Of a DNA stretch of 64,000 bases, positions 1,431 through 61,387 are shown one piece after another. How positions within the stretch are numbered: the stretch's first letter is position 1; the number at the start of each line of letters is the position of its first letter. The position numbers were made by a program, and so were the translations under genes. This DNA is from Candidatus Saccharimonadia bacterium. Lineage in GTDB: Bacteria; Patescibacteriota; Saccharimonadia; UBA4664; JBBRNT01. Below the pieces are notes generated by a model that was not told where the DNA came from, ran no database searches, and worked only from the letters and a program-made list of their open reading frames with translations. The stretch lies in assembly GCA_038230095.1 (NCBI GenBank), contig JBBRNT010000001.1:112848-176847 (forward strand), given 5' to 3'.

Positions 1431-1459
1431 TTCGCATAGCTTGCCTCTCCCTGTATAAT
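1431..1459 (+). promoter_or_regulatory. sigma70-like promoter for leaderless dnaG (TTCGCA-17-TGTATAAT, ATG 6 nt downstream)
   Basis: -35 TTCGCA at 1431-1436, 17-nt spacer, extended -10 TGTATAAT at 1452-1459. The ATG at 1466 coincides with the expected TSS. Confidence 0.45.
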
Positions 1460-1465
1460 AGGTAT

Positions 1466-3244
1466 ATGAACGAAGTTGAGGAGATAAAAGGCCGGCTGGA
1501 GATTGCCGATGTGGTGGGTGGGTATGTGCAGCTGAAGCAAGCTGGGCGCAACCTAAAGGCACCGTGTCCATTCCACCAGGAGAAGACTGCTAGCTTCATG
1601 GTGAGCCCTGAAAAGGGCATATTCCATTGTTTTGGCTGTGGCCAGGGTGGGGACGTCTTCAAATTTGTCATGCTCATAGAGGGTCTAGACTTCCGGTCAG
1701 CACTGGAGCTACTGGCACGGCGGGCTGGGGTGGAGCTGAAGACCAAGAGTGGCCGACCTAAGGAGAATACCGATCGACTGTATGCAGCTATAGAGCTGGC
1801 GGCCAAGTACTTCCAGGCTACCCTGGTAAAGAACCCAAAGGCACTGGAGTATGTAACGAGAGACCGGCGGTTGGGGAAGCAGATTATTACCGACTTTATG
1901 ATTGGCTACGCACCCGAGTCGTGGGAGGCGCTCAGTGGATTCTTGCTGAAGAAAGGCTACACCCAAGACGAGCTCCTGCGGGCGGGGCTAGCGGGTCAGC
2001 GGCCGGAGCGCTCCACAGTATACGACCTATACCGCGGCCGGGTAATGTTTACCATCTCCGATGGGCAGGGGCGGCCGATTGGCTTTACCGGTCGGGTACT
2101 AGACGACTCGCTACCCAAGTACCTGAACACACCCCAGACAGTGCTCTACGACAAGTCCCGCGCCATCTTCGGCCTGCATCTAGCTAAGGAGGCCATTCGG
2201 ACCAAGGATGAGGTGGTGCTGGTAGAAGGCAATATGGACGTCATTGCGAGCCACCAGGCGGGGGTGCGGCAGGTGGTAGCGGCTAGCGGCACGGCGCTGA
2301 CGCTCGACCAGCTGAAGGCGCTGTCCTACCTGAGCAAGAACGTGAAGCTATGCTTTGACGCTGATCGCGCCGGGCTGGCCGCCACTGAGCGGGCCATACC
2401 GCTGGCGCAGAAGCTGGGGCTGAACTTATTCGTGGTGGAGATAGAGGGTGCCAAAGATCCCGATGAGCTTATTCTCCAAGACCCTGCCCTCTGGGAGAAG
2501 GCAATCAAGGATGCCAAGGAGATTCGGGAGTACTGGTACGAGCGGTCTCGGCGGGAGTTTAATATTGATGATAAGCCAAGCGGCATTGATAAGATCCAGT
2601 TTGTGAAACGCATGGCGACTATCCTGCGACTATACGATAATGCGACCCAGCAAGTCTTTGTCCAGCACATGGCAGGTGAGACTGGCATAGAGGAGCAGTC
2701 GTTCCTGGATGCCATTGAGAGCACAGACGAGACTATGCCGACTACCACGCGGACGTCCACGTCTGCGGCTACGGCGCGGATAGCGACCGCAACTGCGGCC
2801 ATAGTGCCCCCGCCTAAGCTAAGTGGTCGAGCCAATATTGAGGTATCGGTGCTTAGCCTGAACCTGGCGTTTCCCGAGGCACGGCTGAGCCTGGAGGACC
2901 TGAGGACTACGGATTTTGCCGATGAACGCCACCAGACTATATTTGATCGGATGATCAGCGAGGGGAGTAATGCCGCTCTGGACCAGCTGGTAAAGGTATT
3001 GCCAGAACAGGCGGATTATGTCAAAATCTTGGCATTGCAAGGCGAAGAAGAATATGCGGATACCGCCCCGGCTGACCGGAGCTTCGTGGCCTTTACCCTA
3101 GCCCGCCGATTGATTGAGCTGGCTAGTCACGACCAGAAAATGACACTAAGTAAACGCCTGAAGGCCGCTGAAGCAAGTGGCGACACTGCGCTGACCCACC
3201 AGATACTTGGTGAGTACCAGGCCATCATGGCAGAGGAGAGATAA
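1466..3244 (+). CDS. dnaG: DNA primase DnaG
   Basis: N-terminal zinc ribbon CPFHQEKTASF...HCFGCGQGGD and a Toprim segment (EGNMDV, DAD). It sits immediately upstream of rpoD in the classic MMS arrangement. Confidence 0.95.
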   Translation: MNEVEEIKGRLEIADVVGGYVQLKQAGRNLKAPCPFHQEKTASFMVSPEKGIFHCFGCGQGGDVFKFVMLIEGLDFRSALELLARRAGVELKTKSGRPKENTDRLYAAIELAAKYFQATLVKNPKALEYVTRDRRLGKQIITDFMIGYAPESWEALSGFLLKKGYTQDELLRAGLAGQRPERSTVYDLYRGRVMFTISDGQGRPIGFTGRVLDDSLPKYLNTPQTVLYDKSRAIFGLHLAKEAIRTKDEVVLVEGNMDVIASHQAGVRQVVAASGTALTLDQLKALSYLSKNVKLCFDADRAGLAATERAIPLAQKLGLNLFVVEIEGAKDPDELILQDPALWEKAIKDAKEIREYWYERSRREFNIDDKPSGIDKIQFVKRMATILRLYDNATQQVFVQHMAGETGIEEQSFLDAIESTDETMPTTTRTSTSAATARIATATAAIVPPPKLSGRANIEVSVLSLNLAFPEARLSLEDLRTTDFADERHQTIFDRMISEGSNAALDQLVKVLPEQADYVKILALQGEEEYADTAPADRSFVAFTLARRLIELASHDQKMTLSKRLKAAEASGDTALTHQILGEYQAIMAEER

Positions 3245-4377: not shown

Positions 4378-4400
4378 AAAGCCCCGAAAGGGGCTTTTTT
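4378..4400 (+). terminator. Rho-independent terminator after rpoD
   Basis: AAAGCCCC-GAAA-GGGGCTTT hairpin followed by a T6 run. Confidence 0.8.
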
Positions 4401-4413
4401 GGTGGGCGCATGA

Positions 4414-4442
4414 TTGACTCTGCGCAGAGCGAGTCGTATGGT
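4414..4442 (+). promoter_or_regulatory. candidate sigma70 promoter (TTGACT-17-TATGGT) heading an ORF-poor transcript
   Basis: Hexamers with exact 17-nt spacing. No credible CDS downstream until the hairpin at 4871-4904. Confidence 0.35.
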
Positions 4443-4904: not shown

Positions 4905-4927
4905 ATTTCCATCTCCGTAGCAAAATC

Positions 4928-6717: not shown

Positions 6718-6881
6718 TCGTGGGCTCCGTCTGGACCAGGAGTCTAGACGGAGCCCTTCTGCGTCTTAGTCCTTGCGCTGGTCGCACAGGGCTGCTGCTG
6801 CGCCGTCCCTCTAGTTCACCACTCGTCCCCGGGGGCTTTGCTCCTGGGGACTTCTTGTTTGTATCGGGGTATAATTGGCGT

Positions 6882-9605
6882 ATGAGCAAAAAACCCACCC
6901 TCGTTCTCGTTGACGGTAGCGCGGTATTTCACCGAGGCTATCACGCCATACCGCCACTTTCGAATAAGGATGGCGTGCCTACCAATGCTACCTACGGCTT
7001 TACTACTATTCTGCTTAAGGTCATTGCCGAGCTGAAGCCGACCTACATGGTAATGGCCTGGGACATGAAGGGGCCAACGTTCCGGCACGAGATGTACCCC
7101 GAGTATAAGGGAACGCGGGTAAAGCAGCCGGACGATCTGTATGAACAAATGCCGTGGGCCAGGAAGGTGACGGAGGCATTGGGCATACCCTGGGTGGAGT
7201 TAGCACGCTATGAGGCAGACGACATTATTGGCACCTTTGTGAAACAGTCTGGCGACCTTGATACCATTATTGTGACCGGTGATAAGGATGAGTTCCAGCT
7301 AATCAATGACACTACACGGGTCTACACCATGCAGCGTGGGTTCACTGACACCACCATCTATGACCTGGCCAAAATGCAGGAGCGCTACGGCTTAACGCCC
7401 GGGCAGTTCTTGGACGCTAAGGCGCTAATGGGCGACTCCAGCGATAACATTCCTGGCGTCCCCGGCGTGGGCGAGAAGACGGCTATGGCACTGATCCAGA
7501 ACTATGGCACGCTGGATGCTGTGTATGACAATCTTGAAAAAATACCAGGCAAACTCGGAGAACGGCTGCGAGATAATAAGGAACTGGCCTACCATAGCCA
7601 CGAGCTATCGCGAATTGTGCAGGATGCGCCGGTCAAGCTAGATCTAGCCGCAGCGGAGCTGGGCCAATACAACCGCACGGAGATCCACGATCTATTTCGC
7701 GAGCTCGGCTTTAAAGGGCTTCTCAGCAAGCTCCCGCCGGAAATGGTAGAGACTGTACCAAGCCTGTTTGATCTAGGTGAACCACAGAAGAAGGACCGGG
7801 CGCATCTGAAGTCGGTGAAGTACCATAGCGTAACCACTGAGAAGGATCTAGCTGAGCTCGTGGCCACACTGGAAAAGACCAAGATCTTTGCTATGGACAC
7901 GGAGACTACTGGGCTAGACGTACTGACGGCCGATCTAGTAGGGTTATCATTCTCTGTAAAGCCTGCTGAGGCCTATTATGTGCCGGTAGGGCACCAGGCG
8001 GGTAAGCAGCTGGCTAAGGATGTGGTACTAGGGGCATTGCGGCCAGCATTGACGAATCCGGCTATAGGTAAGGTGGGGCACAATATTAAATACGATTACC
8101 AAATTCTCCACGAGGCTGGTGTGGTGGTGGCGGGGATTGCCTGGGACACTATGATTGCCGCGTTCTTGCTAAACCCCACTGGCCGCACTCAGTCGCTGGA
8201 CGATCTGGCCTTCTCCGAGCTGGGTATAGACATGATCCCAATTACTGAGCTGATTGGTGCAGGTAAGAGCCAGGCTACTTTTGATACTACTGACATCGCC
8301 GAGGCTACTACTTATGCTTGTGAGGACGCCGACATGAGCTGGCGTATCTATGAGAAGCAGGTCGCCGAGATGGGCCATAAGGACGCGGTGGGCGTAGCCA
8401 AGCTGGCTGCAGCTACCGAGTGGCCGCTCATACCCATACTGGCAGACATGGAGCTGGCTGGTATAGAGCTGGACTCCAAGTTCCTGCACGACTTCAATAA
8501 GGTAATCTCGGCCAAGATTCTGGGTCTGGAAGAGGACATTTATAAGGCCGCGGAGCAGCACTTCAACATTGGCTCGCCGTCGCAGCTGGCCGAGATCCTC
8601 TATAACAAGCTAGCGCTGTCGGCAGTGGGCATAAAGAAGGGCAAGACCGGGCTTTCTACAGCTGCCGATCAGCTGGAGAAAATGCGTGGGATGCACCCTA
8701 TCATTGAACTTATTCTCGAGTACCGCGAGCTAATGAAGCTGAAGAATACCTACATAGACACCCTGCCACAGCTAGTAGCGGCCGACGGGCGCGTGCACAC
8801 CAGCTACAGCCAGACAATTGCGGCCACGGGGCGACTTAGCTCTAATAGCCCCAATCTACAGAACATACCAGTGCGCACTGATCTGGGTCGGGAAATCCGT
8901 AAGGCCTTTGTGGCGCCGAAGGGCCGTGTGCTGGTGGGTGCAGACTACTCGCAGATTGAGCTGCGCGTAGCAGCAGCGCTGGCCAAAGACGAGGCTATGA
9001 TCCAGACCTTTCGTGATGGTATAGATCTGCACCAGCAGACGGCTGCTGAGCTGTATACCGTACCGCTAGAGACTGTCACTAAGCAGCAACGCTATAATGC
9101 CAAGACTATTAACTTCGGTGTAATGTACGGCATGAGCGCTCATGGCCTATCTGTCGCCACAGGTATGACGCGTGAGGAGTCGGCTGGGTTTATCCAGCGC
9201 TACTTCGAGGTGCGACCCAAACTGAAGGCCTACATTGAAGAGACGAAGCTATTTGCCCGCGAGCATGAGTACACCGAGACACTATTTGGTCGCCGTCGAC
9301 CCTGCCCGGAGATTAACTCAAACAACCAGATTCTGGTAAACGCGGCCGAGCGCATGGCGGTAAATGTGCCTATTCAGGGCACGGCAGCGGACATTATTAA
9401 GCTGGCCATGATTGCCCTAGTGCCACGGCTGGATGGTGATGCTAGGCTACTACTCCAGATACATGATGAACTCATCATTGAGACTGACGCGAGCAAGGGC
9501 GAGGCAGTAGCGGCACTGATCCGCGATGTGATGACCAATGTATATGACCTGGGCGTGCCGCTGGCGGTGGATACGGAGATTGGGACCAACTGGGGCGAGC
9601 TGTGA
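6882..9605 (+). CDS. polA: DNA polymerase I (5'-3' exonuclease, 3'-5' exonuclease and polymerase domains)
   Basis: N-terminus MSKKPTLVLVDGSAVFHRGYHA is a typical 5' nuclease start. 3'-5' exonuclease motif FAMDTETTGLD. Polymerase motifs RRPCPEINSN, DYSQIELR and QIHDELI. TATAAT at 6870-6875 lies 6 nt before the ATG. Confidence 0.93.
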   Translation: MSKKPTLVLVDGSAVFHRGYHAIPPLSNKDGVPTNATYGFTTILLKVIAELKPTYMVMAWDMKGPTFRHEMYPEYKGTRVKQPDDLYEQMPWARKVTEALGIPWVELARYEADDIIGTFVKQSGDLDTIIVTGDKDEFQLINDTTRVYTMQRGFTDTTIYDLAKMQERYGLTPGQFLDAKALMGDSSDNIPGVPGVGEKTAMALIQNYGTLDAVYDNLEKIPGKLGERLRDNKELAYHSHELSRIVQDAPVKLDLAAAELGQYNRTEIHDLFRELGFKGLLSKLPPEMVETVPSLFDLGEPQKKDRAHLKSVKYHSVTTEKDLAELVATLEKTKIFAMDTETTGLDVLTADLVGLSFSVKPAEAYYVPVGHQAGKQLAKDVVLGALRPALTNPAIGKVGHNIKYDYQILHEAGVVVAGIAWDTMIAAFLLNPTGRTQSLDDLAFSELGIDMIPITELIGAGKSQATFDTTDIAEATTYACEDADMSWRIYEKQVAEMGHKDAVGVAKLAAATEWPLIPILADMELAGIELDSKFLHDFNKVISAKILGLEEDIYKAAEQHFNIGSPSQLAEILYNKLALSAVGIKKGKTGLSTAADQLEKMRGMHPIIELILEYRELMKLKNTYIDTLPQLVAADGRVHTSYSQTIAATGRLSSNSPNLQNIPVRTDLGREIRKAFVAPKGRVLVGADYSQIELRVAAALAKDEAMIQTFRDGIDLHQQTAAELYTVPLETVTKQQRYNAKTINFGVMYGMSAHGLSVATGMTREESAGFIQRYFEVRPKLKAYIEETKLFAREHEYTETLFGRRRPCPEINSNNQILVNAAERMAVNVPIQGTAADIIKLAMIALVPRLDGDARLLLQIHDELIIETDASKGEAVAALIRDVMTNVYDLGVPLAVDTEIGTNWGEL

Positions 9606-13052: not shown

Positions 13053-13906
13053 CGGCCGAGCAACACCAGGGTCGTAATACCTGCGAATGTAATAACTATG
13101 CCAGCTACCTGACTGTGGCTGATCCGATCCTTAAGCTTGAAGTGGGCTATTATGGCGAAAACGATGATGCTAGCCGTGACGAGCACTGCCACTATGCTAG
13201 CGGGCCCAGCAGCGTAGCCGTAGACCTCAATATAGCTGGTAACACCTGTGAGAAGGCCATACCACAGTAGATTGGCGTGGCCTTTTCTAGGCCAAAGGCG
13301 ACGTCGCTGCCGTCTTGCCACTACCAAGAGAGTACTCAAGCCGATGATAACGATAATGAGAATATCTAGATACCAGCCGGTATGGTTCACTACGTACTTG
13401 TTCATAGCATTGCCAACGCCATAAAGTAGCGCTGAGACTATGGCTGCTACCGTGCTCAGACCAGGCCGGCCACCCGCTCTAAGGCGTTTGAAATTGACCG
13501 AGCAGAGCAGGGCGCCGAAGAATGTGAGCGCGAGAGCGGCCCACTGTGTGGGTCTGAGGTGTTCACCGATAAATATAACTGCCAGGATGACCACGATGGC
13601 GCTACTGCTGCTGACGATTGTCTGGTGGGCAGAGGCGTTACCGTGAGTGTAGGAGTAGTTTGAAAGAAAGAAAGCGCTAACCATACAGAGACTGGCCGCT
13701 AGCAGAAAAAGCGACACTATCGGGGATAGGCTGGCCCAGGGGATATGTCTGGTCGGCAGCAGCACAAGGGCTACTACTCCGGCTATAGCATAAGACCAGA
13801 TGCTCGCTAGTAATGGGCTATTGGAGCGGCTGGCAAAGGTGCCAAAGAGCGACGCTACGCCGTAGGCCACCATGCAAACAAGACCGCAGATAATCGCAAT
13901 AGACAT
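13049..13906 (-). CDS. EamA/DMT-family membrane transporter (about 10 TM)
   Basis: Two repeated 5-TM halves of hydrophobic helices typical of the EamA family. Confidence 0.7.
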   Translation of the reverse strand: MSIAIICGLVCMVAYGVASLFGTFASRSNSPLLASIWSYAIAGVVALVLLPTRHIPWASLSPIVSLFLLAASLCMVSAFFLSNYSYTHGNASAHQTIVSSSSAIVVILAVIFIGEHLRPTQWAALALTFFGALLCSVNFKRLRAGGRPGLSTVAAIVSALLYGVGNAMNKYVVNHTGWYLDILIIVIIGLSTLLVVARRQRRRLWPRKGHANLLWYGLLTGVTSYIEVYGYAAGPASIVAVLVTASIIVFAIIAHFKLKDRISHSQVAGIVITFAGITTLVLLGR

Positions 13907-13980
13907 GTATTCAGCTTAGCATGCCACTTATGCTAAACTAGGCCTCGCTTTCCAGGTATAATTGATGCATAGGAGTTACT

Positions 13981-15454: not shown

Positions 15455-15801
15455 GGTGACCTCCTGGTCGGGTAGGGCCACTTCGGATGAAGTAGCGGAG
15501 AGCTTCTCAGCGGATAATCTTGCGATTACCCGCAAAAAGCTCTCTGCAACAGGCTGTGAAAGGACAATGACGTATATTAGCACAATAACTATATATTGTC
15601 AATAGTTATCACCAAGAAATGGTGACGGCTCGAACAAGTATTGTTCGGGCGCGTGCGCTCAGGCAATGAGTGGGCGCGCGGTGGTGGATGGGTTCATAGC
15701 GCTTCCTAACAGAATATTTCAAGCTGCTCCGAGTGGACCCTCGTTCGAAGGAGGACCTGCCAACATTCGACCTGGTCTCTAGATTGACCTAAACTGAGTT
15801 T

Positions 15802-16731
15802 ATGATCTTTTTCTTTCATGGGCCGAACCAATATGCCATCAAGAAGCAGCTGCAGAGTATGCGGCAGGCTTTTGTGGCGAAGAACGGAGCAGATTTCGGC
15901 ATTGAGCAGCTTGACGGAGCCGGCGTGGACCCCAAGCGCTTGCCCGAGCTACTACAGGCGGCGCCGTTCCTAGCGAACTCACGGCTGGTTATTCTGGAAG
16001 GACTGGGGAAGAATAAGCCGGCGACAGAGGTGGCGCTGACGCTACTGGCGAAGATTCCGGACACCACCGTGGCAGTGTTTGCGGACACAGAAGTAGACCA
16101 GCGAACGAGCTGGTTTAAGATCCTGTCGACGGAGGCTAAGGTGGTGAAGTTTGATCTGTTGGAAGGCTCACAGCTAAGTAGCTGGATTAAGCGTACCGCG
16201 GAGGAGCAGGGCGGGCGTATTGAGCGACCAGGTGTAGATGCTCTTGCGGCAGCCTGTGGACCGGACCAGTGGCGGCTGGAGCAGGAGATACAGAAGCTGG
16301 TGAGTTATGCCCCGGATATTACCGAAGAGACGGTGAAGCTCCTGGTGGAGACCACCGTAGAGCAATCCATATTTGAGCTGGTGGAGGCAATTACGAGCGG
16401 CAAGACCAGTAAGGTACTTACCATGTACCGCGAGCTGATTCGGCAGCGAGTAAATGAATTCTATCTACTCACCATGGTGCAGTGGCAGCTACGAAATCTG
16501 CTATCGGCTAAGGCTGGTGAGGGCCTAAGTAGTAGCGAGCTCGCTAAGCGGGTGAAGATGAGCCCCTACGTGGCGGGTAAGGCCCAGCAGGCTGCCAGGC
16601 GGCTGAGTGTAGAGGATCTAGAAGCGGGGTTCCTGACCTCCCTGGATGCCGAAGTGGCGATGAAGAGTGGGCGACCCCAGCAGGCCTCACTGGAGCAGCT
16701 GCTGTATGATCTATCCACGCGGTTCAGGTAG
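15802..16731 (+). CDS. holA: DNA polymerase III delta subunit
   Basis: N-terminal FFHGPNQYAIKKQL and overall delta-subunit (clamp-loader) architecture. Confidence 0.8.
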   Translation: MIFFFHGPNQYAIKKQLQSMRQAFVAKNGADFGIEQLDGAGVDPKRLPELLQAAPFLANSRLVILEGLGKNKPATEVALTLLAKIPDTTVAVFADTEVDQRTSWFKILSTEAKVVKFDLLEGSQLSSWIKRTAEEQGGRIERPGVDALAAACGPDQWRLEQEIQKLVSYAPDITEETVKLLVETTVEQSIFELVEAITSGKTSKVLTMYRELIRQRVNEFYLLTMVQWQLRNLLSAKAGEGLSSSELAKRVKMSPYVAGKAQQAARRLSVEDLEAGFLTSLDAEVAMKSGRPQQASLEQLLYDLSTRFR

Positions 16732-16935
16732 CTAGTGAGCGTCGGCTTGCTTGATTTGCTCGATCAGGTGGTCTATCTCGCCAATGACGGTGCGGATACG
16801 GGCCAGCTCGCCCTTGGCCAGCCAGGCATTGCCCGGTGTGTGGGCGTAGTCACGCAGGAGCTTGAGGTGCTGGGTGGCCTCAATGGTGAGGTCGTGGCAC
16901 TCTTGGCGTAGGCTGCTGGCATCGGTGGGTTTCAT
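16732..16935 (-). CDS. small hypothetical protein (67 aa)
   Basis: ORF only. Coding-like composition. No recognised domain. Confidence 0.35.
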   Translation of the reverse strand: MKPTDASSLRQECHDLTIEATQHLKLLRDYAHTPGNAWLAKGELARIRTVIGEIDHLIEQIKQADAH

Positions 16936-16983
16936 AGTATCTATTGTATAGGATTGCGACCAGATTGGCGTAATACCAAAAAA

Positions 16984-20163: not shown

Positions 20164-20284
20164 CCTGGCGGCATCAGGCTAATACTGCTACCACTGTGGC
20201 AACAGCCAACATGCCTAAGGCCTACGCCCTCAGGATTACCTGGGGGCGTTTCATTTCTAGCGGCTCCAATGCTACACTCTGCCC

Positions 20285-20962
20285 ATGACTCACGCCTACA
20301 ACGGCCTGCTACTGGTCGACAAACCAGTAGGGCCATCTTCCTTCGATATTATTCGGCAACTGCGCCAGATCACTGGCTTTCGTAAGATTGGCCATGCTGG
20401 CACCCTGGACCCCCTGGCAAGTGGGCTCATGCTGATGCTATTTGGTCCAGCCTGTAAGAAGGCGGAGATGCTGACCAAGCTGGACAAGAGCTATGTGGCC
20501 CAGGTGGTACTGGGGGCAAACTCGACGACTGGGGATATGGAGGGTGAGAAGCTAGCCGTATCGGATAGGGAGCCAAGCGGGGAAGAGGTCCTAGCGGCGC
20601 TAGCGCAGCTACAGGGGGAAATAACACAAATTCCATCACAATATTCGGCAATTAAGATTAATGGCCAGGAGGCCTACAAGCTGGCACGAGCTGGGAAGAT
20701 CGTGGAAATGCCCAGTCGCCAGGTGACGGTAAGAACATTTAAGTTACTAGGCTTCCACCATACCCATCTGGAAATTGAGTGGAATGTGTCGTCTGGTACC
20801 TATATTCGCAACCTGGGAGAAGACCTGGGAGGGTTGCTGGGCACCGGTGCGCATCTGGCCGGTTTACGGCGTACGGTGGTAGGGGAGTATAGGCTAGAGC
20901 AGGCAATGGTGATTGCAGGGGCAGGAGCTGAGGATATTCAGCAGCATTTATTGACTATTTAG
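20285..20962 (+). CDS. truB: tRNA pseudouridine(55) synthase
   Basis: LLLVDKPVGPSSFDIIRQLRQITGFRKIGHAGTLDPLASGLMLMLFG contains the catalytic Asp motif. Confidence 0.92.
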   Translation: MTHAYNGLLLVDKPVGPSSFDIIRQLRQITGFRKIGHAGTLDPLASGLMLMLFGPACKKAEMLTKLDKSYVAQVVLGANSTTGDMEGEKLAVSDREPSGEEVLAALAQLQGEITQIPSQYSAIKINGQEAYKLARAGKIVEMPSRQVTVRTFKLLGFHHTHLEIEWNVSSGTYIRNLGEDLGGLLGTGAHLAGLRRTVVGEYRLEQAMVIAGAGAEDIQQHLLTI

Positions 20963-29220: not shown

Positions 29221-29278
29221 GGCGCTAGCTGATAGCGCACAGGGATAAAATATTCAGCCCGGGTGGTAAGATGGACGT

Positions 29279-30382
29279 ATGGCACTTCAACCCGACAATC
29301 TGCGAGAACATGTATCACTTGCCCGGTACTCTACAATGCGGCTGGGCGGTGAGGCGCGCTACTTTGCCGAAGTGCGCTACGAAGAAGAACTCAAGAATGC
29401 GGTGGCCTGGGCCAAGGAGCAGAAGCTCCCCATGATTATGCTGGGGGGTGGAAGCAATACGGTTATCACCGATGCTGGATTCGCTGGACTGGTGATTATT
29501 AATCGGATTACCGGCCTGCGTAAGGGTCCGGCTGGCGTAGGGGAGGTACTCGTAACGGCTGGTTCTGGTGAGATTTGGGACGATCTGGTGGCCTATACGG
29601 TTGAGCAGGGCTTGTCGGGGCTAGAGACGCTGTCGCTTGTGCCTGGCACGGTGGGGGCGGCGCCCATGCAGAACATTGGCGCCTACGGCATGGAGATTGA
29701 CCAAGTACTGGAGCACTTGGAGGCGTTGGATCTGCAGACAGACCAAGTGGTGTCGCTCACACCGGTAGAGTGCGGGTTTAGCTACCGCTCTAGCTGGCTG
29801 CAGACCAAGCTGAAAGGGCGGTATTTTATTATGAGCGTCACGTTTCGGCTGCAGGACTTTGCCAAGACGCTAGAGATGGAGCGCAAGATAAAGCCACCGT
29901 ACTATACGGATATTGCCGACTACCTAGCCGAGCACCCGGTCGCAGCCCCGACGCCACAAGTAATACGGGACGCTGTGATTGCCATACGCAAGCGGAAGCT
30001 GCCAGATGTGGCTACTGTGGCAACGAGCGGCTCTTTTTTCGGTAATCCCATACTTGACGCAGCCGCTTTCGAGAAGCTAGTGGCCGAGCACCCTGCCCTC
30101 AATGAGCCGGGTGCCGGCTACACCCAGAAGCCGTATTGGCCTATGCCAGACGGCCGTATTAAGGTGTCGGCCGGCCGACTGATTGAAATGTCTGGCATGC
30201 GCGGCTGGAAAGACGCCGAGACCGGCATGGCTATTAGTGATAAGCAGGCATTGGTCGTTATTAATGAGCATGCCGAGTCGGCGGCTGACCTGTTCCGTTT
30301 TCGACAAAAGATAGTTGATAGGGTCTATGAGCAGTGGGGGATTATACTTGAACAAGAGCCAGAAACCATTGGTGCCGAGTAG
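29279..30382 (+). CDS. murB: UDP-N-acetylenolpyruvoylglucosamine reductase
   Basis: FAD-binding N-terminus YSTMRLGGEARYF...MLGGGSNTVI and the MurB C-terminal domain. Confidence 0.9.
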   Translation: MALQPDNLREHVSLARYSTMRLGGEARYFAEVRYEEELKNAVAWAKEQKLPMIMLGGGSNTVITDAGFAGLVIINRITGLRKGPAGVGEVLVTAGSGEIWDDLVAYTVEQGLSGLETLSLVPGTVGAAPMQNIGAYGMEIDQVLEHLEALDLQTDQVVSLTPVECGFSYRSSWLQTKLKGRYFIMSVTFRLQDFAKTLEMERKIKPPYYTDIADYLAEHPVAAPTPQVIRDAVIAIRKRKLPDVATVATSGSFFGNPILDAAAFEKLVAEHPALNEPGAGYTQKPYWPMPDGRIKVSAGRLIEMSGMRGWKDAETGMAISDKQALVVINEHAESAADLFRFRQKIVDRVYEQWGIILEQEPETIGAE

Positions 30383-30433
30383 GCAGATTCCCATCTGGAC
30401 AAAGCAGAGCATAAGGAGTATAATAGGAACATA

Positions 30434-32563
30434 ATGGCTCGTAAAAAAGCAGCAAAAAAACCAAAAAAGACCAAGGATGTCGAAAAGGAGCCCAAGCTTG
30501 CTCGTGGCGTAGGCCAGGAGATTATTGCTATCCTCATTATGATTGTGGCAGTGGTACTGCTCCTCTCGTCGTTTGGTTGGGGTGGTGACTTTGCCAACCA
30601 GACCTTTGCCACTATCCGACTTACCCTGGGACTAGCGGCCTTCTTGGTGCCGTTTATCCTAGCCATATTGGGCTGGATGCTTGTGCGTCCGTCTCGGTAC
30701 GCCGTAAAGGGCAATTTCTACTTTGGCTTCCTTGGCTTCGAGCTGGCATTTGCCGCGCTGCTGGGCGCCCTGACTAACCCCGACATGGCACTAACGCAGG
30801 CTCAAGCTGGCATGGGCGGTGGTATGGGTGGGTTCTTTGTGTCTACGCTATTTCTCCGGTTCGTGAACGTGCCGACGTCCGTTATTATCCTATCTGGTCT
30901 TATGGTGGTGTTCCTGATTGTCGCGGCCAATGCGCGCATTGTAGACATGTGGCACATCCTGACCGGCCGGTTTGCCAAGGCTCCGCTTGAAGAACTGAAG
31001 ATAAACGAGGCCACCGGTGTGGAGGCACAGCCAAGTAACAAGCTCCAGATAAAAGGCACGATTGGACTGGCCAAGGCTCCGGCCAAGCCTAAGACCGAGG
31101 AAGAAGCACTGACAGTGAATCTAGACCCAGAGTGGGAGCCACCGTCAACAAACTTGCTGGAATCTACCAGCACTAAGGCTGACGCCGGCAATGTCAAAGA
31201 AAACGCTGCAATCATTAAGGATACGCTGGAAAGCTTTAATATTAATGTTCAGATGGGCGAGGTTAATGTCGGCCCCACGGTGGCCCAGTACACCTTCTTG
31301 CCACCCTCGGGTGTGAAGCTGAATAAGATTACTGGGCTCGATACTAATCTCGCGCTATCGCTGGCGGCTCACCCTATTCGGATCGAAGCGCCAATTCCAG
31401 GCAAGTCGGCGGTAGGTGTGGAAATACCCAATAAGACAATTGCCACGGTGCGCCTGCGCGACGTATTGATGAGCCCCGAAGTACGGGCGCAGAAGTCGCC
31501 GCTGCAGTTCGTGCTGGGCCGCGATGTCAGTGGTATTTCTATGTCTGCTGACCTGGCCAAGATGCCCCATATGCTCATTGCCGGTGCGACTGGCTCGGGT
31601 AAGTCCGTCATGATTAATGCCGTGCTGACGAGCCTACTCTATCGCAACTCGCCTTCAGACCTGAAGCTGATTCTTGTCGACCCGAAACGAGTAGAGCTGA
31701 GCCTGTATAATGACATTCCCCATTTGCTTACACCCGTCATTGTGGAGCCAGAGAAGTGTATCTCGGCACTGAAGTGGGCTGTGGCTGAGATGGAGCGCCG
31801 ATACAAGCTGCTGGCCGAGGTAGGCAACCGCAATATTATTGAGTACAACAAGGCCCACCCGGAAGAGGCTATGCCCTATATTGTGATAGTCATAGACGAG
31901 ATGGCCGACCTGATGGTGCTGGCTGCCCAAGACGTGGAAGGCCTGATCGTGCGTCTGGCTCAGATGGCGCGTGCCATTGGTATACACCTGGTACTCGCCA
32001 CGCAGCGCCCTTCAGTAGACGTGATTACGGGCCTTATTAAGGCCAATATCCCAGCCCGTCTGGCCTTTAGCGTGGCCTCACAGATTGACTCTCGGACTAT
32101 CCTGGACCAGGCCGGTGCTGAGAAGCTACTGGGTAAGGGTGACATGCTCTTCAGCTCTCCAGAGTACATGAAGCCACGTCGTATACAGGGCGTGTTCATG
32201 AGCGAGAAAGAAGTGAAGTCGGTGACAGACTACCTGCGTAGCGCACGGGCGCCTCAGTACAATGAGGAGATTACCAGCCAACCCGTGAAGATAGGCAAAG
32301 GCGGTGGCGGTGGTATGGACGACTTTGACGGCGCTGATGACGACATGTTTGAGCAAGCTGCCGAGACAGTCATCAGAAGCGGCAAGGCCTCTGCTAGCCT
32401 TCTACAGCGCCGCCTGCGAGTGGGCTATGCTCGGGCCGCCCGTCTCCTAGACCTACTGGAAGAGCGCGGGATAGTGGGGCCACCTGACGGCGCCCGTCCG
32501 CGCGACGTACTAGTAGCTAGCATGAACGATGTTGCCAACGGCGATGTGACGTTCGAGGACTAA
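30434..32563 (+). CDS. ftsK: DNA translocase FtsK/SpoIIIE with gamma (winged-helix KOPS-reading) domain
   Basis: N-terminal TM helices. Walker A GATGSGKSV. C-terminal gamma domain SASLLQRRLRVGYARAARLLDLLEERGIVG. Confidence 0.93.
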   Translation: MARKKAAKKPKKTKDVEKEPKLARGVGQEIIAILIMIVAVVLLLSSFGWGGDFANQTFATIRLTLGLAAFLVPFILAILGWMLVRPSRYAVKGNFYFGFLGFELAFAALLGALTNPDMALTQAQAGMGGGMGGFFVSTLFLRFVNVPTSVIILSGLMVVFLIVAANARIVDMWHILTGRFAKAPLEELKINEATGVEAQPSNKLQIKGTIGLAKAPAKPKTEEEALTVNLDPEWEPPSTNLLESTSTKADAGNVKENAAIIKDTLESFNINVQMGEVNVGPTVAQYTFLPPSGVKLNKITGLDTNLALSLAAHPIRIEAPIPGKSAVGVEIPNKTIATVRLRDVLMSPEVRAQKSPLQFVLGRDVSGISMSADLAKMPHMLIAGATGSGKSVMINAVLTSLLYRNSPSDLKLILVDPKRVELSLYNDIPHLLTPVIVEPEKCISALKWAVAEMERRYKLLAEVGNRNIIEYNKAHPEEAMPYIVIVIDEMADLMVLAAQDVEGLIVRLAQMARAIGIHLVLATQRPSVDVITGLIKANIPARLAFSVASQIDSRTILDQAGAEKLLGKGDMLFSSPEYMKPRRIQGVFMSEKEVKSVTDYLRSARAPQYNEEITSQPVKIGKGGGGGMDDFDGADDDMFEQAAETVIRSGKASASLLQRRLRVGYARAARLLDLLEERGIVGPPDGARPRDVLVASMNDVANGDVTFED

Positions 32564-32601: not shown

Positions 32602-32651
32602 GGTGCAGACTACTGACTGCTCGATCCGAGTAAATCCTGTACACTAGGAGT

Positions 32652-33650
32652 ATGAAAGAGAAGCCAGTACAGCTTGCACCGCTTATTCCGCATGTGGCCG
32701 ACCTGCGAGTGGGAGCAATGCTGCGTAAGCAGCGGCAAGTGCTTAAGATTACGCTGGCCGACGTGGAGATAGCAACCAAGATCCGGGGTAAATACCTGGT
32801 GAGTCTAGAGGCCTGTGACTACGGTAGCCTGCCAGATGACATATATACCAAGGGCTTTGTGCAGAGCTACGCGGACTTCCTGGGGCTTGAGGGCAGGCTG
32901 GTGGCCAAGCAGTACCAAAGCGAGCGTGGTTCGGTAAAGACTAAGCGCGCGGTGGCGGCCAAGAAGCCGGTACAGAGGAAGGCACGTGGTTTCTACATTA
33001 CGCCGCGGCTGTTTATAGTGGCGGGCTCGGTGCTGGTGGCGGCGGGTATTATTGCCTACCTATCTTGGCAGTTCCAGGGGCTATCTGCCCCGCCCCGGCT
33101 GGCTGTAGACAGCCCCGGCGATAACCAAGTGATAGACGGCGGTCTCACAACCATTAGTGGAAGCGTGGCGGGTGGGTCCAATGTGTTTGTGAATGACTCG
33201 CCCGTGCTACTAGATGCACGCGGGCACTTCAGCGATCAGCTGGCTCTGCAGGACGGCGTGAATACTGTGCGGGTGACGGCTACCAACCGCCTTGGTCGCG
33301 AGGCAATCGTCACACGTAATGTGCTAGCGAGAGTGGCCAAGATGGCTAACGGCACGGCAGACAGCCCGCAGCTTATCCCTGGCGTACGGGTAATAGTGAC
33401 TGCCAAGGGTGGCACAGCCAGTATTACGATCGCCATTGATGGCCAGGGCAAGCCGCGCGTGACCATGCTGGACGGTACCTCGCAGACATTTGAGGGCACT
33501 GATCGTATTACCATCTCCACCACGAATGCGGGGGTGACAAACCTGACTGTGACCAATAGTGTGGCCGCGGGTAAGACTATTAGTCCGGTGGGACATGACG
33601 GCGAGGCTAAGAATGATCTGGAGTTTACCAAGGACACAGTGATCCCATAG
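32652..33650 (+). CDS. RodZ-like HTH domain membrane protein
   Basis: N-terminal Xre-type HTH (ITLADVEIATKIRGKYLVSLE...YTKGFVQSYADFLGL), one TM segment, then an extracytoplasmic beta-rich domain. Confidence 0.65.
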   Translation: MKEKPVQLAPLIPHVADLRVGAMLRKQRQVLKITLADVEIATKIRGKYLVSLEACDYGSLPDDIYTKGFVQSYADFLGLEGRLVAKQYQSERGSVKTKRAVAAKKPVQRKARGFYITPRLFIVAGSVLVAAGIIAYLSWQFQGLSAPPRLAVDSPGDNQVIDGGLTTISGSVAGGSNVFVNDSPVLLDARGHFSDQLALQDGVNTVRVTATNRLGREAIVTRNVLARVAKMANGTADSPQLIPGVRVIVTAKGGTASITIAIDGQGKPRVTMLDGTSQTFEGTDRITISTTNAGVTNLTVTNSVAAGKTISPVGHDGEAKNDLEFTKDTVIP

Positions 33651-34191: not shown

Positions 34192-34466
34192 GCTGCTTAC
34201 GCTTTCGGGCCCTTTTAATTACCTGGACAATAATCCAGGTAATAATAGCGGGCCAGAGAATGAAGGCAATGACAATGAGGAGCTGGACAATGTCGCGCTG
34301 GGCTGGAGTCCAGGTAGTGGGGAATAGGTTCATGGGCGTAGTGTAGCACGGCTGTTTCCAGATGTATAAACAGAGGCTTGACAGTACGGTTTATGTTCGG
34401 TTATGATGCATACATCAATACATTGGCCTGGTAACAGCCTGGCCACAAGATAAGGAGCGCGCTACA

Positions 34467-36285: not shown

Positions 36286-36840
36286 CTATTCTATGGGCAT
36301 GGTTGCACCAACACCGGCCCGCTTTGACTCTCTGATTGTGGCCTCGCGAACGGTGATTCGGTCGTTGGTAACATCCACAATTTGCTCGCGGTCTATCAGC
36401 AGGGTGTCCGACATGAGCCGTCGCAAGAGCTGCGGCTGGATAGTAAGCCTCTGTACCCGGCTGGTCTCGAAATTGATCGTAAAGTCTTCAACCTTGCCCA
36501 AGTAGCTCCCCCCTTCAGTGAACACCTTTGTGTCTACTAGTCGAAAGCCACTTGCTACAATCTGTTTGATACGCACAATATCCTCTAGACTGGCCAGCGC
36601 ATCCGCGCTGTCTACCAAAATGCAATCATTTCCTATCTCTCTAGCATCGCGAAGAAAGAGAATGGGGTCTACTAGGTCCAGGTCGGGGGCAAAACACCGA
36701 AAAGCTACTAGCTCTAGCTTATCGGCAGTAACCACAAAGTCGCCAACGATGGCTACGAGGCCGCCGACTTGGAGGCTTATCACCGCTTTACTCACTAGCT
36801 GGCTCGCAAATACATACATAATGGTATTGTACGTGCCCAT
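36286..36840 (-). CDS. PRC-barrel-like domain protein (two tandem beta-barrel-like modules)
   Basis: Two segments resembling PRC barrels: GGLVAIVGDFVVTADKLELVAF and SYLGKVEDFTINFETSRVQRLTI. The start is ambiguous. The ORF is open up to 37131, but an ATG at 36990 would overlap the rpsF start. Confidence 0.5.
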   Translation of the reverse strand: MGTYNTIMYVFASQLVSKAVISLQVGGLVAIVGDFVVTADKLELVAFRCFAPDLDLVDPILFLRDAREIGNDCILVDSADALASLEDIVRIKQIVASGFRLVDTKVFTEGGSYLGKVEDFTINFETSRVQRLTIQPQLLRRLMSDTLLIDREQIVDVTNDRITVREATIRESKRAGVGATMPIE

Positions 36841-40774: not shown

Positions 40775-41846
40775 TGAAGCGGAACTCAACTACATCGCCG
40801 TCACGCATGACGTAGTCTTTGCCCTCAAGACGCATCTTACCAGCTGCCTTTGCTGCTGCTTCTGAGCCGGCAGCCATAAGATCCCCGTAATTAACGATTT
40901 GGGCCTTGATAAAGCCTTTTTCGAAGTCTGTATGGATAACGCCGGCAGCCTGGGGAGCAGTGTCACCCTGGTGGATAGTCCAGGCGCGCACCTCATCTGG
41001 TCCGGCGGTGAGGTAGGTCTGCAAGCCGAGCGTCTTAAACCCAAGGGTAACCAGCTGCTCTAGACCTGAGGCGTTCTGACCTAGGTCCTGGAGCAGCTCG
41101 GCAGCGTCGGCTGCTTCCAGTTCTGAGAGCTCGGCCTCTATCTTGGCGCAGAGGAAGACAGTGGGGGCTGGCGATACAAGCGCAGAGAGCTCTGCCTGCT
41201 TCGCTGAATCGGACAGATCACCTTCGTCCATGTTGAAGACAATGATAAATGGCTTGGCGGTGAGTAGCTGCAGATCCTGTAGCTCGAGGAGCTGCTCCGG
41301 CTTCAGGAACGCCCCAGCCAGCTGGCCGCTATCCAGCGCAGATACCAGCGCTTGAAGCAGATCGCGGTAGGGGACGGCCTTGGGATTGCTCTTGGCTTCC
41401 CCCTGAGCTTTGGCTAGGCGATTCTGCGTAGTAGCTAGGTCGGCCAGGATTAGCTCGGTGTTGATTGTCTGGATGTCCGACAGGGGATCTAGCTTGTCGT
41501 CTACGTGAATAACATTTTTATCCGAAAAGACCCGTACAACCTGACAGATGGCATCGGTTTCTCGGATATGAGACAGAAACTTGTTACCAAGACCCTGGCC
41601 TTCTGAGGCGCCACGGACCAGCCCGGCAATGTCGACAAAGGTGACAATAGCGGGGGTGATCTTCTTGGGATCATACAGCTCAGCTAGCTTAGCGAGGCGG
41701 GTGTCGGGCACCGGAACAATACCCACATTGGGGTCAATGGTGGCAAAAGGGTAGTTGGCTGCAAGGACATTATTACCCGAGAGAGCGTTGAAGAGAGTGG
41801 ACTTACCAACGTTTGGTAGGCCAACGATGCCAATAGATAAACTCAT
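40767..41846 (-). CDS. ychF: ribosome-binding ATPase YchF (Obg-like GTPase family)
   Basis: G1 GIVGLPNVGKSTLFNAL, YchF-type coiled insert, and C-terminal TGS domain. ATG at 41846; the upstream ORF extension lacks an SD. Confidence 0.9.
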   Translation of the reverse strand: MSLSIGIVGLPNVGKSTLFNALSGNNVLAANYPFATIDPNVGIVPVPDTRLAKLAELYDPKKITPAIVTFVDIAGLVRGASEGQGLGNKFLSHIRETDAICQVVRVFSDKNVIHVDDKLDPLSDIQTINTELILADLATTQNRLAKAQGEAKSNPKAVPYRDLLQALVSALDSGQLAGAFLKPEQLLELQDLQLLTAKPFIIVFNMDEGDLSDSAKQAELSALVSPAPTVFLCAKIEAELSELEAADAAELLQDLGQNASGLEQLVTLGFKTLGLQTYLTAGPDEVRAWTIHQGDTAPQAAGVIHTDFEKGFIKAQIVNYGDLMAAGSEAAAKAAGKMRLEGKDYVMRDGDVVEFRFNV

Positions 41847-41995
41847 ATGCCTATTATACCAGTAAACACTCGTTTTCGAAGGACGGAAGCACAAGCAAAT
41901 GTCTGCCATTTTAACCTTGTTATGGTTGTAATAATGGCAAAACGGCTGTATAGTCGCCTCAACACCCACCCCCTCGACTCTGGAAAGGAGTCATC

Positions 41996-49489: not shown

Positions 49490-49518
49490 TAGACAAGCCA
49501 TAGTTGTTATGCTAATGT
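49490..49518 (+). promoter_or_regulatory. candidate promoter for pilM (TAGACA-17-TGCTAATGT)
   Basis: Extended -10 TGnTAATGT ends 7 nt before ATG 49526. Short or leaderless transcript. Confidence 0.35.
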
Positions 49519-49525
49519 CGAAGCA

Positions 49526-50563
49526 ATGGCATTATTTAATACAGACAATGACTACTTCGGTTTAGACATTGGCGAGACGGGTATCCGGCTGGTCCAGCTA
49601 CGCAAGTCGGCTGGTAAACCGGTGCTGGTGACGCTTGGGGATATACCCGTGCCGGGTAACTTGCTTATGAGCGATGCCCCGATCGACCAGGATAAGCTGT
49701 CCAGTATCATCCGCCAGCTAGTGAAGGATCTGGGTGTGTCGACAAATAGCGTGGCGCTTGGTCTGCCAGCCAATAAGGTCTATGCTGCCGTGATAACCAC
49801 CCCGAAACTGACCGAAGCCGAGCTGTCGAAGGCTATCCGCTTCCAGGCTGATCAGTACGTACCGGTGGCAATTGACCAGGTGAAGTTGGATTGGACGGTA
49901 CTAGGACCCGGCAAGACCGACAACGAGCTGGAAGTTCTACTAGTAGCGTGCCCCAATACTGTAGCCGACAAATACCTATCTATCGCCGAGAACGCGGGGC
50001 TAGACGTAATGTCTTTGGAGACAAACTCTATGGCGCTGTACCGGGCAGTGGTCCCTACTGGCAGTCCGGCAGTGGTGGTGATTGATATTGCCAATACCGA
50101 CACTGATCTGGCCATTGTCTACAATGATACCCCTCGCTTGTTGCGCTCTATTGCGGTGGGCGGAAATACATTCCTAAAGGTTGTGTCGCAAGGTCTGGGA
50201 CTTGATGAAGTGCAGGCAGACCAGTTCATTAAGAAATTTGGTCTGACGCAAACCAAGCTCGAAGGACAGGTCTACAAAGCCATTAAGCCCAGCATTGACC
50301 TCCTGATTGAAGAAGTGGGGAAGAGCATTAAGTTCTTTGCTACTCGCTACCCAGAGGTAAAAATTGAGAAGCTCGTGCTGACTGGTGGTAGCTCACAGAT
50401 GCTGGAGCTTCCGACCTATCTGGCGAATGCAACCAGGCTACCAGTTGAAATTGCTAACCCGTGGATTAATATAGGCTACCCAGCAAGCATGCACGAGCGA
50501 CTGCTGGGCCTGGCCCACACCTATGGTGTGGCAGCTGGCCTTGCCCAAAGGATGTACCTGTAA
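49526..50563 (+). CDS. pilM: type IV pilus assembly protein PilM (actin-like ATPase fold)
   Basis: YFGLDIGETGIRLVQL N-terminus, FtsA/PilM fold length, and gene order pilMNO. Confidence 0.85.
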   Translation: MALFNTDNDYFGLDIGETGIRLVQLRKSAGKPVLVTLGDIPVPGNLLMSDAPIDQDKLSSIIRQLVKDLGVSTNSVALGLPANKVYAAVITTPKLTEAELSKAIRFQADQYVPVAIDQVKLDWTVLGPGKTDNELEVLLVACPNTVADKYLSIAENAGLDVMSLETNSMALYRAVVPTGSPAVVVIDIANTDTDLAIVYNDTPRLLRSIAVGGNTFLKVVSQGLGLDEVQADQFIKKFGLTQTKLEGQVYKAIKPSIDLLIEEVGKSIKFFATRYPEVKIEKLVLTGGSSQMLELPTYLANATRLPVEIANPWINIGYPASMHERLLGLAHTYGVAAGLAQRMYL

Positions 50564-56701: not shown

Positions 56702-56724
56702 ATTGGCTCTGGTATAATCTGGTT

Positions 56725-57531
56725 ATGGTTTTTCTTCTGGGTGTATTGGGTCTTATCTTCGGTAGCTTCTCAGGGGCAACGGCTTGGCGTATTCATAAAC
56801 GTATGGAGGCAGAGGACGCCGGCAAGCAGATAGATGAGAAGTACTCCGTAAGCCGGGGGCGTTCGTTGTGTGAGTCCTGCGGCCATGAGCTGGCAGCGCT
56901 GGACCTGGTGCCGCTACTAAGCTGGCTGGTCCTGCGGGGTCGGTGCCGCTACTGCCGGACCCGGCTGTCGTGGGAGTATCCGCTAATTGAGCTGGTGATG
57001 GCGGGGCTATTTGTTGTGTCATACCTGGTACTTGCGCCCACAAGCCTCAGCCAGTGGCTGTACTTTGCCTACTGGCTCTATCTGGTAACTAGTTTGTTGA
57101 TCCTGGCGGTATCGGACCTGAAATGGATGCTGCTGCCGGACGTGGTGCTGCTACCCGCACTGGCCCTGGCGACTGCCCTGGCTCTGGCGCAGCTGCTAGC
57201 GGGTGGATCAGCGGGCATGCTCCTTGCCGGGCTGGTGGCGGGTGGTGCGTTTCTAGCCCTGTCTGTCCTGTCTGGTGGGCGGGGGATGGGGATGGGGGAC
57301 GTGAAGCTGGCGGCGCTCATGGGGGTGGTACTGGGCCCGCTACACACAGTGATAGCTATGCTAATTGGATTTAACAGTGCCGCGGTGGTCAGTCTGGGAC
57401 TCATTGCACTCCATCGCAAACGGGCCAAAGACCACATACCGTTTGGGCCGTTTCTTATAGCCGGGCTGGTAATTGCCCTGCTCTGGGGTGCCCCCATTAG
57501 CACCTGGTACCTCCGGGTGGCCGGACTATAG
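56725..57531 (+). CDS. pilD: prepilin peptidase (A24 family) PilD
   Basis: Cytoplasmic zinc motif CESCGHEL...CRYCRTRL, catalytic Asp regions, 7-8 TM. TGGTATAAT lies 6 nt upstream of the ATG. Confidence 0.88.
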   Translation: MVFLLGVLGLIFGSFSGATAWRIHKRMEAEDAGKQIDEKYSVSRGRSLCESCGHELAALDLVPLLSWLVLRGRCRYCRTRLSWEYPLIELVMAGLFVVSYLVLAPTSLSQWLYFAYWLYLVTSLLILAVSDLKWMLLPDVVLLPALALATALALAQLLAGGSAGMLLAGLVAGGAFLALSVLSGGRGMGMGDVKLAALMGVVLGPLHTVIAMLIGFNSAAVVSLGLIALHRKRAKDHIPFGPFLIAGLVIALLWGAPISTWYLRVAGL

Positions 57532-57566
57532 CTGCGCAGCATAAGCACCATGGTATAATTTGAGCA

Positions 57567-61284: not shown

Positions 61285-61387
61285 AGACCCTATTGTAAGC
61301 TAGCAATGGGGGAGAGCCAAGTCGCACAATAATTGCCAAGTGTAATCTACTTTACAGCCGTCCGCCCCCATCTGGTACACTGAGGGC

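Follow-up and report, generated by a model that had tools for sequence, protein, structure and literature searches.

Start-codon-proximal −10 promoter elements suggest leaderless gene expression in Saccharimonadia

The analysed window comprises 64,000 nucleotides (nt) of Candidatus Saccharimonadia bacterium (assembly GCA_038230095.1, contig JBBRNT010000001.1, positions 112,848-176,847, forward strand), and coordinates given here count from its first letter. Genes distributed over the window carry a −10 promoter box directly upstream of the start codon, an arrangement that would give rise to leaderless mRNAs, i.e., transcripts devoid of a 5' untranslated region (UTR). A preliminary description of this DNA had listed seven genes with such a site, namely dnaG, polA, truB, pilM, pilD, a minor pilin gene and a wzy-like gene. 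All seven sites were found exactly where it had placed them. Seven proved too low a count, since nine more were identified, giving at least 16 leaderless-type sites. About a quarter of the window genes (~16 of ~60) and ~40% of the transcription units carry a site of this type.

The seven sites first described are all located on the + strand. The dnaG site (1431..1468) consists of TTCGCA (1431-1436), a 17-nt spacer and TATAAT (1454-1459) placed 6 nt before the ATG at 1466. For polA (6870..6884), TATAAT (6870-6875) precedes the ATG at 6882 by 6 nt, and for truB (20270..20287), TGCTACACT (20270-20278) stands 6 nt before the ATG at 20285. The pilM site (49510..49528), with TGCTAATGT (49510-49518) and a spacing of 7 nt to the ATG at 49526, heads the operon pilM-N-O-(87 aa)-B-T-C (49526-56115; aa, amino acids). 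The prepilin peptidase gene pilD (56710..56727) has TGGTATAAT (56710-56718) 6 nt before the ATG at 56725, directly 3' of the pilA terminator. The same sequence (57551-57559) lies 7 nt before the ATG at 57567 of the first minor pilin gene (57551..57569), which heads a four-gene operon (57567-60368). The inclusion of whole pilus sub-operons in the leaderless set was supported, such sites being placed at the head of the minor-pilin operon, of pilD and of the operon running from pilM to pilC. The wzy-like O-antigen polymerase/ligase gene (61373..61390) has TGGTACACT (61373-61381) 6 nt before the ATG at 61388.

Further sites were found on both strands. On the + strand, they precede holA, encoding the DNA polymerase III delta subunit (15790..15804; TAAACT, 6 nt, ATG 15802), murB (29264..29281; TGGTAAGAT, 6 nt, ATG 29279), a gene for an HTH_25 (RodZ-like) protein (32637..32654; cTG-TACACT, 6 nt, ATG 32652) and, in addition to the nine counted above, ftsK (30419..30436). 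In ftsK, TATAAT is separated from the ATG at 30434 by 9 nt, which predicts a near-leaderless mRNA with a leader of ~3 nt; this case is ambiguous because AGGA lies 5 nt from the ATG. On the − strand, sites were found before an EamA-family transporter gene (13904..13921; TGCTAAGCT, 6 nt, ATG 13906), a PRC-barrel gene with a 177-aa product (36817..36831; TACAAT, 6 nt, ATG 36819), ychF (40767-41861; site 41844..41861, TGGTATAAT, 6 nt, ATG 41846), which heads the ychF-EEP-DUF4260 operon, and a xerC/D recombinase gene (61282..61320; TTGGCT, 17 nt, TACAAT, 7 nt, ATG 61284). Two small open reading frames (ORFs) on the − strand complete the set. One is a 52-aa membrane-type ORF (34333 to 34175) with the site at 34331..34348 (TGCTACACT, 6 nt, ATG), and the other is a 67-aa ORF downstream of rpsT (ORF region 16732-16948; site 16933..16948, TACAAT, 7 nt, ATG 16935), a candidate leaderless small gene. 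A match before recX (35571), TAGTCT-6-ATG, was rejected as a chance occurrence, its TAG being the recA stop codon 9 nt upstream.

The sites had been characterised as extended −10 elements with the consensus TAYAMT. The TGn extension is usual, with TG in the canonical register (−15/−14) at 8 of 14 aligned window sites against an expectation of 1 in 16, but it is displaced from this register by a single base at dnaG and likewise before the RodZ-like gene. The hexamer consensus does not hold for pilM, whose TAATGT does not fit. A spacing of 6 nt combined with a pyrimidine at −1 was observed at 11 of the 16 window sites.

The positional preference of these boxes was evaluated with a gene-start set made of the first ATG of 56 long non-overlapping ORFs of the window, for which the end positions of upstream TANNNT hexamers were recorded. 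Ten hexamers ended at spacing 6 and three at spacing 7, where ~2.7 were expected for both together, whereas each spacing from 8 to 30 held 0-4 (mean ~1.35 per position; Poisson P ~5e-6). With the extension included, TGnTANNNT at spacing 6-7 occurred at 7 of 56 gene starts versus 3 of 1730 other ATGs (Fisher P = 2e-9). The same preference was seen in 80 related loci (described below), with 82 of 1245 gene starts versus 101 of 37824 other ATGs; there the TGnTANNNT peak covered spacings 6-10. A motif no more frequent near starts than elsewhere, named in the preliminary description as a refuting result, was seen in neither data set. Seven copies of TGNTANNNT-N6-ATG were present against 1.75 expected, a number reached by 0 of 100 dinucleotide shuffles; six of them are the starts of genes with Pfam domains and the seventh is that of the conserved 52-aa ORF. 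Because bare TGNTANNNT was not enriched in the window (113 versus 109 expected), the signal is positional, relative to gene starts. Neither the window profile nor that of the related loci showed TANNNT enrichment at spacings 20-30, where an archaeal-type TATA element would be expected.

Leaderless-type starts and SD (Shine-Dalgarno) sequences excluded each other. When an SD-like match of at least 4 nt located 3-12 nt from the ATG was scored, it was found at 0 of 15 clean leaderless-type sites versus 30 of 43 other window genes (Fisher P = 1e-6; the PRC-barrel gene was scored at another start), in agreement with the earlier statement that these starts have no SD. Conventional genes are found in the same DNA: mutM, yajQ/DUF520, recA and pilA each have a −10 box, a leader of 20-50 nt and an AGGAG-type SD. 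The coexistence of two initiation modes in one organism, SD-led genes with normal leaders beside SD-less leaderless-type starts, was accordingly corroborated. Among the genes that had been cited for clear SDs, recA, mutM and pilA suit that role, but rpsO (22139-22180) does not. The 12 nt between its GGAGGG and the ATG at 22166 are many for an SD, and TAATCT stands 6 nt before this ATG. The offset of the S15 domain agrees slightly better with another in-frame ATG, at 22178; the start of rpsO is ambiguous.

The start codon was ATG at all window sites. Each site falls within an intergenic gap of 35 nt or more, several of them just after terminators and some in divergent gene pairs (EamA/mutM, xerC/D/wzy, ychF/41996 and PRC/rpsF); the EamA gene diverges from the SD-led mutM (ATG 13981), and the xerC/D and wzy promoters are arranged back to back. 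Apart from the chance match at recX, the signature was absent from genes that overlap their upstream neighbour or follow it within 18 nt. Signature-free genes internal to operons include rpoD, pilN, pilO, pilB, pilT, pilC, the later minor pilins, EEP and DUF4260.

For comparison, 160 loci were collected, comprising 80 PilB loci (from one-genome-per-species GTDB contigs) and 80 metagenomic dnaG loci. The PilB relatives in the former were all from Saccharimonadia/Saccharibacteria metagenome-assembled genomes (MAGs) at 56-72% identity, the nearest being soil MAGs. Sites of spacing 6-7, selected solely on T−12, A−11 and T−7, were combined into a sequence logo (238 sites). Beyond the selected positions, the logo displayed T−17, R−16, T−15, G−14, A−9 and A−8, yielding the consensus TRTGnTAYAAT, with frequencies of 62% for T−15, 61% for G−14 and 58% for T−17. 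No column from −38 to −28 exceeded 0.16 bits in these 238 sites, i.e., the −35 region was essentially empty. We take this TRTGnTATAAT logo to represent the '−16 / extended −10' promoter class, a pattern of RNA polymerase contacts. Promoters of the extended −10 / −16 region type work without a good −35 element. A generic −35/−10 plus terminator scan of 44-64 kb returned 18 promoter-like sites versus 15.9 in shuffled sequence and recovered only the xerC/D promoter, a failure that fits promoters without a −35 element. The gene for the presumed partner, RpoD, lies right after dnaG (3245-4360) and encodes a full-length housekeeping sigma factor with regions 1.1, 1.2, 2, 3 and 4. Scans of the window for tRNAs and Rfam families gave no match, so the sites are not accounted for by a riboswitch or other RNA gene of this kind. 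GCATAAG, observed upstream of three boxes, was considered as a shared regulatory site and dropped, as it is not enriched in the window (10 versus 10 expected).

The bases between the hexamer and the ATG carried a start-site signal. At spacing 6, a pyrimidine occupied −1 in 96% of 77 clade sites, compared with 54% of the 1618 other genes (P = 6e-16). Where the spacing was 8, 9 or 10, a pyrimidine-preceded A was found instead at −1, −3 and −4, 7-8 nt downstream of the hexamer. The pyrimidine-purine (Y-R) signal thus keeps its distance to the −10 box rather than to the ATG. It follows that at spacing 6 the Y(−1)R(+1) signal lands on the A of the ATG. PMC12641261 gives 7 nt as the empirical norm across bacteria for the interval between −10 box and start site, and the data described there include 188 start sites of the saccharibacterium TM7x.

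Orthologs in the collected loci were identified by tblastn, with the start codon taken as the one nearest to the aligned N-terminus, without regard to any motif; a −10 box was scored at a spacing of 5-8 nt from the start and an SD as a 5-mer. A −10 box preceded 73% of dnaG orthologs (n = 70; SD in 3%), 71% of xerC/D (n = 41; SD 12%), 65% of polA (n = 17; SD 12%), 60% of pilM (n = 75; SD 7%), 58% of pilD (n = 55; SD 0%) and 41% of ychF orthologs (n = 32; SD 9%). The proportions were reversed for pilA (n = 62; −10 box 3%, SD 79%), pilB (n = 78; 9% and 40%), pilT (n = 76; 0% and 70%), pilC (n = 74; 5% and 34%) and rpoD (n = 20; 5% and 65%). The ortholog upstream regions are otherwise diverged, with protein identity down to 35-60%, yet the −10 elements recur. 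cTTATGcTAnAAT is kept before pilM in most of the 75 ortholog upstream regions, GTCGTACAAT is kept before the xerC/D orthologs, and a terminator followed by TGcTAnnAT recurs before pilD in many orthologs. ATG was used by 93-99% of the dnaG, polA, pilM and xerC/D orthologs, by 82% for pilD and 84% for ychF, and by 65-91% in the SD-led families. Judged from these upstream sequences, the arrangement is gene-specific and conserved across Saccharimonadia.

The reading of the sites depends on the called ATGs being the true starts. Pfam N-terminal alignments support them, as the domains begin 3-12 residues in for DnaG (zinc ribbon from aa 3), PolA (5'-3' exonuclease domain from aa 6), PilM (PilM_2 from aa 12), PilD (A24 N-terminal domain from aa 7), YchF (G domain from aa 5), the EamA protein (EamA domain from aa 3) and XerC/D (SAM-like domain from aa 8). 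The delta domain of HolA starts at aa 4, and TruB_N spans aa 27-174. The ATG of the minor pilin is required by its prepilin leader and N-methylation motif (aa 6-25). Ortholog N-termini align from residue 1. The wzy start is unconstrained by Pfam, with the domain beginning at aa 177, and in the murB, RodZ-like and PRC products the Pfam domain begins at aa 23-93, too far in to fix the start. For the PRC-barrel gene, the ortholog in assembly L161 has 177 aa, the same N-terminus and TACAAT-6-ATG, and the divergent gene of the window most likely starts at 36819 and not at the starts of the longer ORF.

The motif, its geometry, the exclusion of SDs, the operon position, the conservation and the start-site dinucleotide are features of the DNA itself; from them we infer where the 5' ends lie and how the mRNAs are translated. 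These features are best explained by extended −10 promoters at which the first transcribed base is the A of the ATG, and we regard this as very probable. The housekeeping sigma-70 holoenzyme would bind the extended −10 / '−16 region' (TRTGnTAYAAT) with little or no −35 contribution and open the DNA. With the hexamer 6-7 nt before the ATG and the usual start at a pyrimidine-preceded purine ~7 nt downstream of it, transcription is predicted to begin on the A of the ATG where the spacing is 6, and on that A or at −1 where it is 7. The resulting mRNA would have neither 5' UTR nor SD, and its first cistron would be translated in leaderless fashion by a ribosome binding the 5'-terminal AUG. Later cistrons of such operons would use SDs or translational coupling.

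Several points weigh against so strict a reading. At spacing 7 (pilM, minor pilin and xerC/D), a leader of 1 nt and no leader at all are equally likely, and upstream promoters could add leadered isoforms. The −10 box of holA is weak and has no TGn. Minor-pilin orthologs mostly show a spacing of ~10 (loci L003-L019: TGcTATAtT) together with a conserved A(c/g)ttATG, which implies a leader of ~4 nt; for this gene the exact spacing drifts from lineage to lineage, and strict leaderlessness does not hold throughout. The gene calls in the related loci are crude (first ATG of a long ORF), which makes the clade-wide fractions rough, and the search for 5'-end data from relatives found none, the TM7x transcriptome preprint being without start-site, promoter or operon analysis. 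The promoters might be real and the transcripts not strictly leaderless, having leaders of 1-5 nt or coming, for most of the expression, from upstream promoters as leadered isoforms. The sites of spacing 7-10 in the window (pilM, minor pilin, xerC/D and ftsK), the breadth of the clade peak (spacings 6-10), the Y-A dinucleotide at −1 to −4 in the longer-spacing classes and the A(c/g)ttATG of the minor-pilin orthologs would all suit this alternative. It is nevertheless improbable in our estimation, as the 11 of 16 window sites with spacing 6 and a pyrimidine at −1 place the preferred start exactly on the A, and no SD is available for a longer isoform. Leaders of 1-4 nt are moreover too short for an SD and behave as leaderless in known systems.

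A different view would make TAnnnT a non-SD translation signal on leadered mRNAs instead of a promoter, for instance by binding ribosomal protein S1 or by acting as an unstructured enhancer of the kind seen in Bacteroidota. Its distance from the start is the usual one for a ribosome-binding site, and the GeneMarkS-2 article points out that a distance of 6-8 nt is common to Pribnow boxes and ribosome-binding sites; ribosomes of the Candidate Phyla Radiation (CPR) are also unusual, with a short bS1 and, in some Parcubacteria, loss of the anti-SD (PMC9297842). Such a signal would, however, hardly account for TRTGn, the near-invariant T−12, A−11 and T−7 and the preference for A−9 and A−8, which form an RNA polymerase signature beyond mere A/T richness, nor for a Y-R dinucleotide tied to the hexamer rather than to the ATG. 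Operon-internal genes lack the motif though they also need a translation signal, the motif is placed after terminators and back to back in divergent intergenic regions, and GGAGG-type SDs are plainly used elsewhere in the same genomes, all of which renders a translation signal very unlikely. Least credible of all is chance or mis-annotation, with the boxes acting as ordinary promoters for leadered mRNAs that are translated from start codons further downstream. The starts of wzy, the 67-aa ORF and holA, being less tightly constrained by domain alignments, leave some room for it. Against it stand the domains that begin 3-12 residues after the ATG in the seven proteins named above, the minor-pilin motif that needs its ATG and the ortholog N-termini alignable from residue 1, and chance is excluded by the enrichment statistics.

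Transcription from the A of the ATG at an extended −10 promoter would place Saccharimonadia, as a new lineage, among the users of a known architecture, the GeneMarkS-2 group C type, and would not be mechanistically new. In PMC6028130, group C comprises genomes with a Pribnow box 6-8 nt from the start of operon-first genes and 25-50% of operons leaderless, and is assigned to 90% of Actinobacteria and 97% of Deinococcus-Thermus. At the level of sequence, the window presents every group C hallmark, i.e., the −10 box spacing, the missing SD, the restriction to first genes and ATG. The resemblance is close for group C Actinobacteria (Mycobacterium tuberculosis, M. smegmatis, Corynebacterium and Streptomyces), which have the Pribnow box at 6-8 nt before operon-first genes, no SD there and SD-led genes otherwise; the 25-50% of leaderless operons quoted for the group in that source compares with ~40% of the window units. 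Leaderless transcription has been experimentally demonstrated in M. tuberculosis (PMC3898074) and in mycobacteria more broadly (PMC4633059). The window differs from Actinobacteria in its almost exclusive use of ATG and its strong extended −10 / TRTG, and the leaderless mode here is predicted from the DNA. Mycobacteria use GTG too at leaderless starts.

Deinococcus-Thermus share the −10 box abutting the start codon and the mixture of leaderless and SD-led genes. The leaderless fraction is higher in Deinococcus, where it was shown by differential RNA sequencing (dRNA-seq) and N-terminal proteomics, whereas the present case is built on sequence and conservation; for Deinococcus deserti, 167 of 262 mapped genes are leaderless, as cited in PMC6028130. 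The clade logo also resembles the extended −10 / '−16 region' promoters (TRTGnTATAAT) of Gram-positive bacteria, including the near absence of −35 information. In Firmicutes, however, extended −10 promoters normally precede leaders with strong SDs, while the Saccharimonadia ones abut the start codon. Leaderless genes of archaea (GeneMarkS-2 group D) are alike in that the 5' end of the mRNA coincides with the start codon or adjoins it, with SDs serving the cistrons further downstream. The archaeal promoter, as outlined in the GeneMarkS-2 article, is a TATA/BRE element 22-26 nt upstream; that of the window is a sigma-70 −10 box 6-7 nt upstream, accompanied by RpoD and GGAGG-type SDs. Translation of a 5'-terminal AUG without an SD is familiar from lambda cI transcribed from PRM and from tetR of Tn1721. 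Such E. coli, phage and transposon cases are rare in an SD-dominated genome, whereas the mode proposed for the window would be systematic, extending over dnaG, polA, holA, murB, truB, ychF and the type IV pilus operons.

A literature search retrieved no paper tying leaderless mRNA to Saccharibacteria, Patescibacteria, CPR or TM7, although such an absence is no proof of novelty. Saccharimonadia are not discussed in the main text of the GeneMarkS-2 article (PMC6028130), and a prior automatic group C call for a TM7 genome is possible. The CPR ribosome survey (PMC9297842), which reports the short bS1 and the anti-SD loss, is silent on leaderless mRNAs.

The conservation raises a broader and more tentative idea. 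Leaderless initiation might be ancient across the class Saccharimonadia, and possibly more widespread in Patescibacteria, in a gene-specific way, with dnaG, polA, xerC/D, ychF, pilM and pilD having stayed leaderless, which would imply selection on the mode itself; we consider this possible but rather doubtful. If it were true, the mode could define a translational regulon of its own in organisms whose ribosomes are pared down (short bS1). It could also serve the control of pilus and replication genes in an epibiotic life cycle, with YchF, a leaderless-mRNA factor, itself encoded on a leaderless mRNA. An article on CPR ribosome biogenesis (PMC12641178) cites YchF as promoting or regulating leaderless-mRNA translation in E. 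coli.

A CPR lineage would thereby join the heavy leaderless users, Actinobacteria and Deinococcus-Thermus, and could be compared with them in light of the reduced CPR ribosome. The predicted leaderless state of the prepilin peptidase gene and of the operons for the pilus machinery and the minor pilins, set against the SD-led major pilin, provides a testable handle on differential translational control of the host-attachment organelle. For genetics, Saccharibacteria (TM7x, Southlakia) are newly tractable, and the ~20-nt TRTGnTATAAT-N6-ATG may act as an expression element free of a ribosome-binding site; leaderless-type promoters would also matter for the design of clean insertions beside pil genes. 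For annotation, gene finders tuned to SDs are expected to set starts wrongly in Saccharibacteria MAGs and to overlook small genes there. Here the signature proved predictive, as it pointed to the conserved 52-aa membrane ORF and fixed the start of the PRC-barrel gene.

The 52-aa ORF (MNLFPTTWTPAQRDIVQLLIVIAFILWPAIITWIIVQVIKRARKRKQPSDSS; 34175-34348, − strand), located between yajQ/DUF520 and recA, encodes one hydrophobic helix with a basic tail and is headed by TGCTACACTacgcccATG, identical to the truB site at 16 of 18 positions. Assembly L161 contains a 47-aa homolog with 78% identity in the same context, preceded by TGGTAGGCT-6-ATG. Tblastn searches with the 52-aa and 67-aa ORFs gave no match in the 160 loci, which leave out the recA and rpsT neighbourhoods, and neither of the two ORFs had a Pfam match.

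Further observations concern individual genes of the window. Within 36286-38193 lies an rpsF-ssb-rpsR cluster (36930-37343, 37343-37804 and 37975-38193). The S6 domain begins at aa 21 of the long rpsF ORF, and the rpsF start may be further downstream. The rpsR gene shows TAATTT-7-ATG after a 170-nt gap and is ambiguous, as is rpsO. The rpoD terminator (~4381-4400) is followed by 2.3 kb up to the polA promoter (4400-6700) that contain only short ORFs on both strands and gave no Pfam, tRNA or Rfam match. Around the start of an MFS transporter ORF (region 27640-27725), the RNase J terminator has a T-run that leads directly to the first ATG (27689) and a hairpin preceded by TATAGT, and the second ATG (27722) has TGGTAAGAT 10 nt upstream. 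The SD-led pilA leaders of many Saccharimonadia (L002-L054) contain a recurrent (A/C)(A/G)TAAGCA(T) ~25-40 nt before the ATG. The window has gTAAGCA at ~56126, and the element may belong to the pilA −10/start region or be the site of a regulator.

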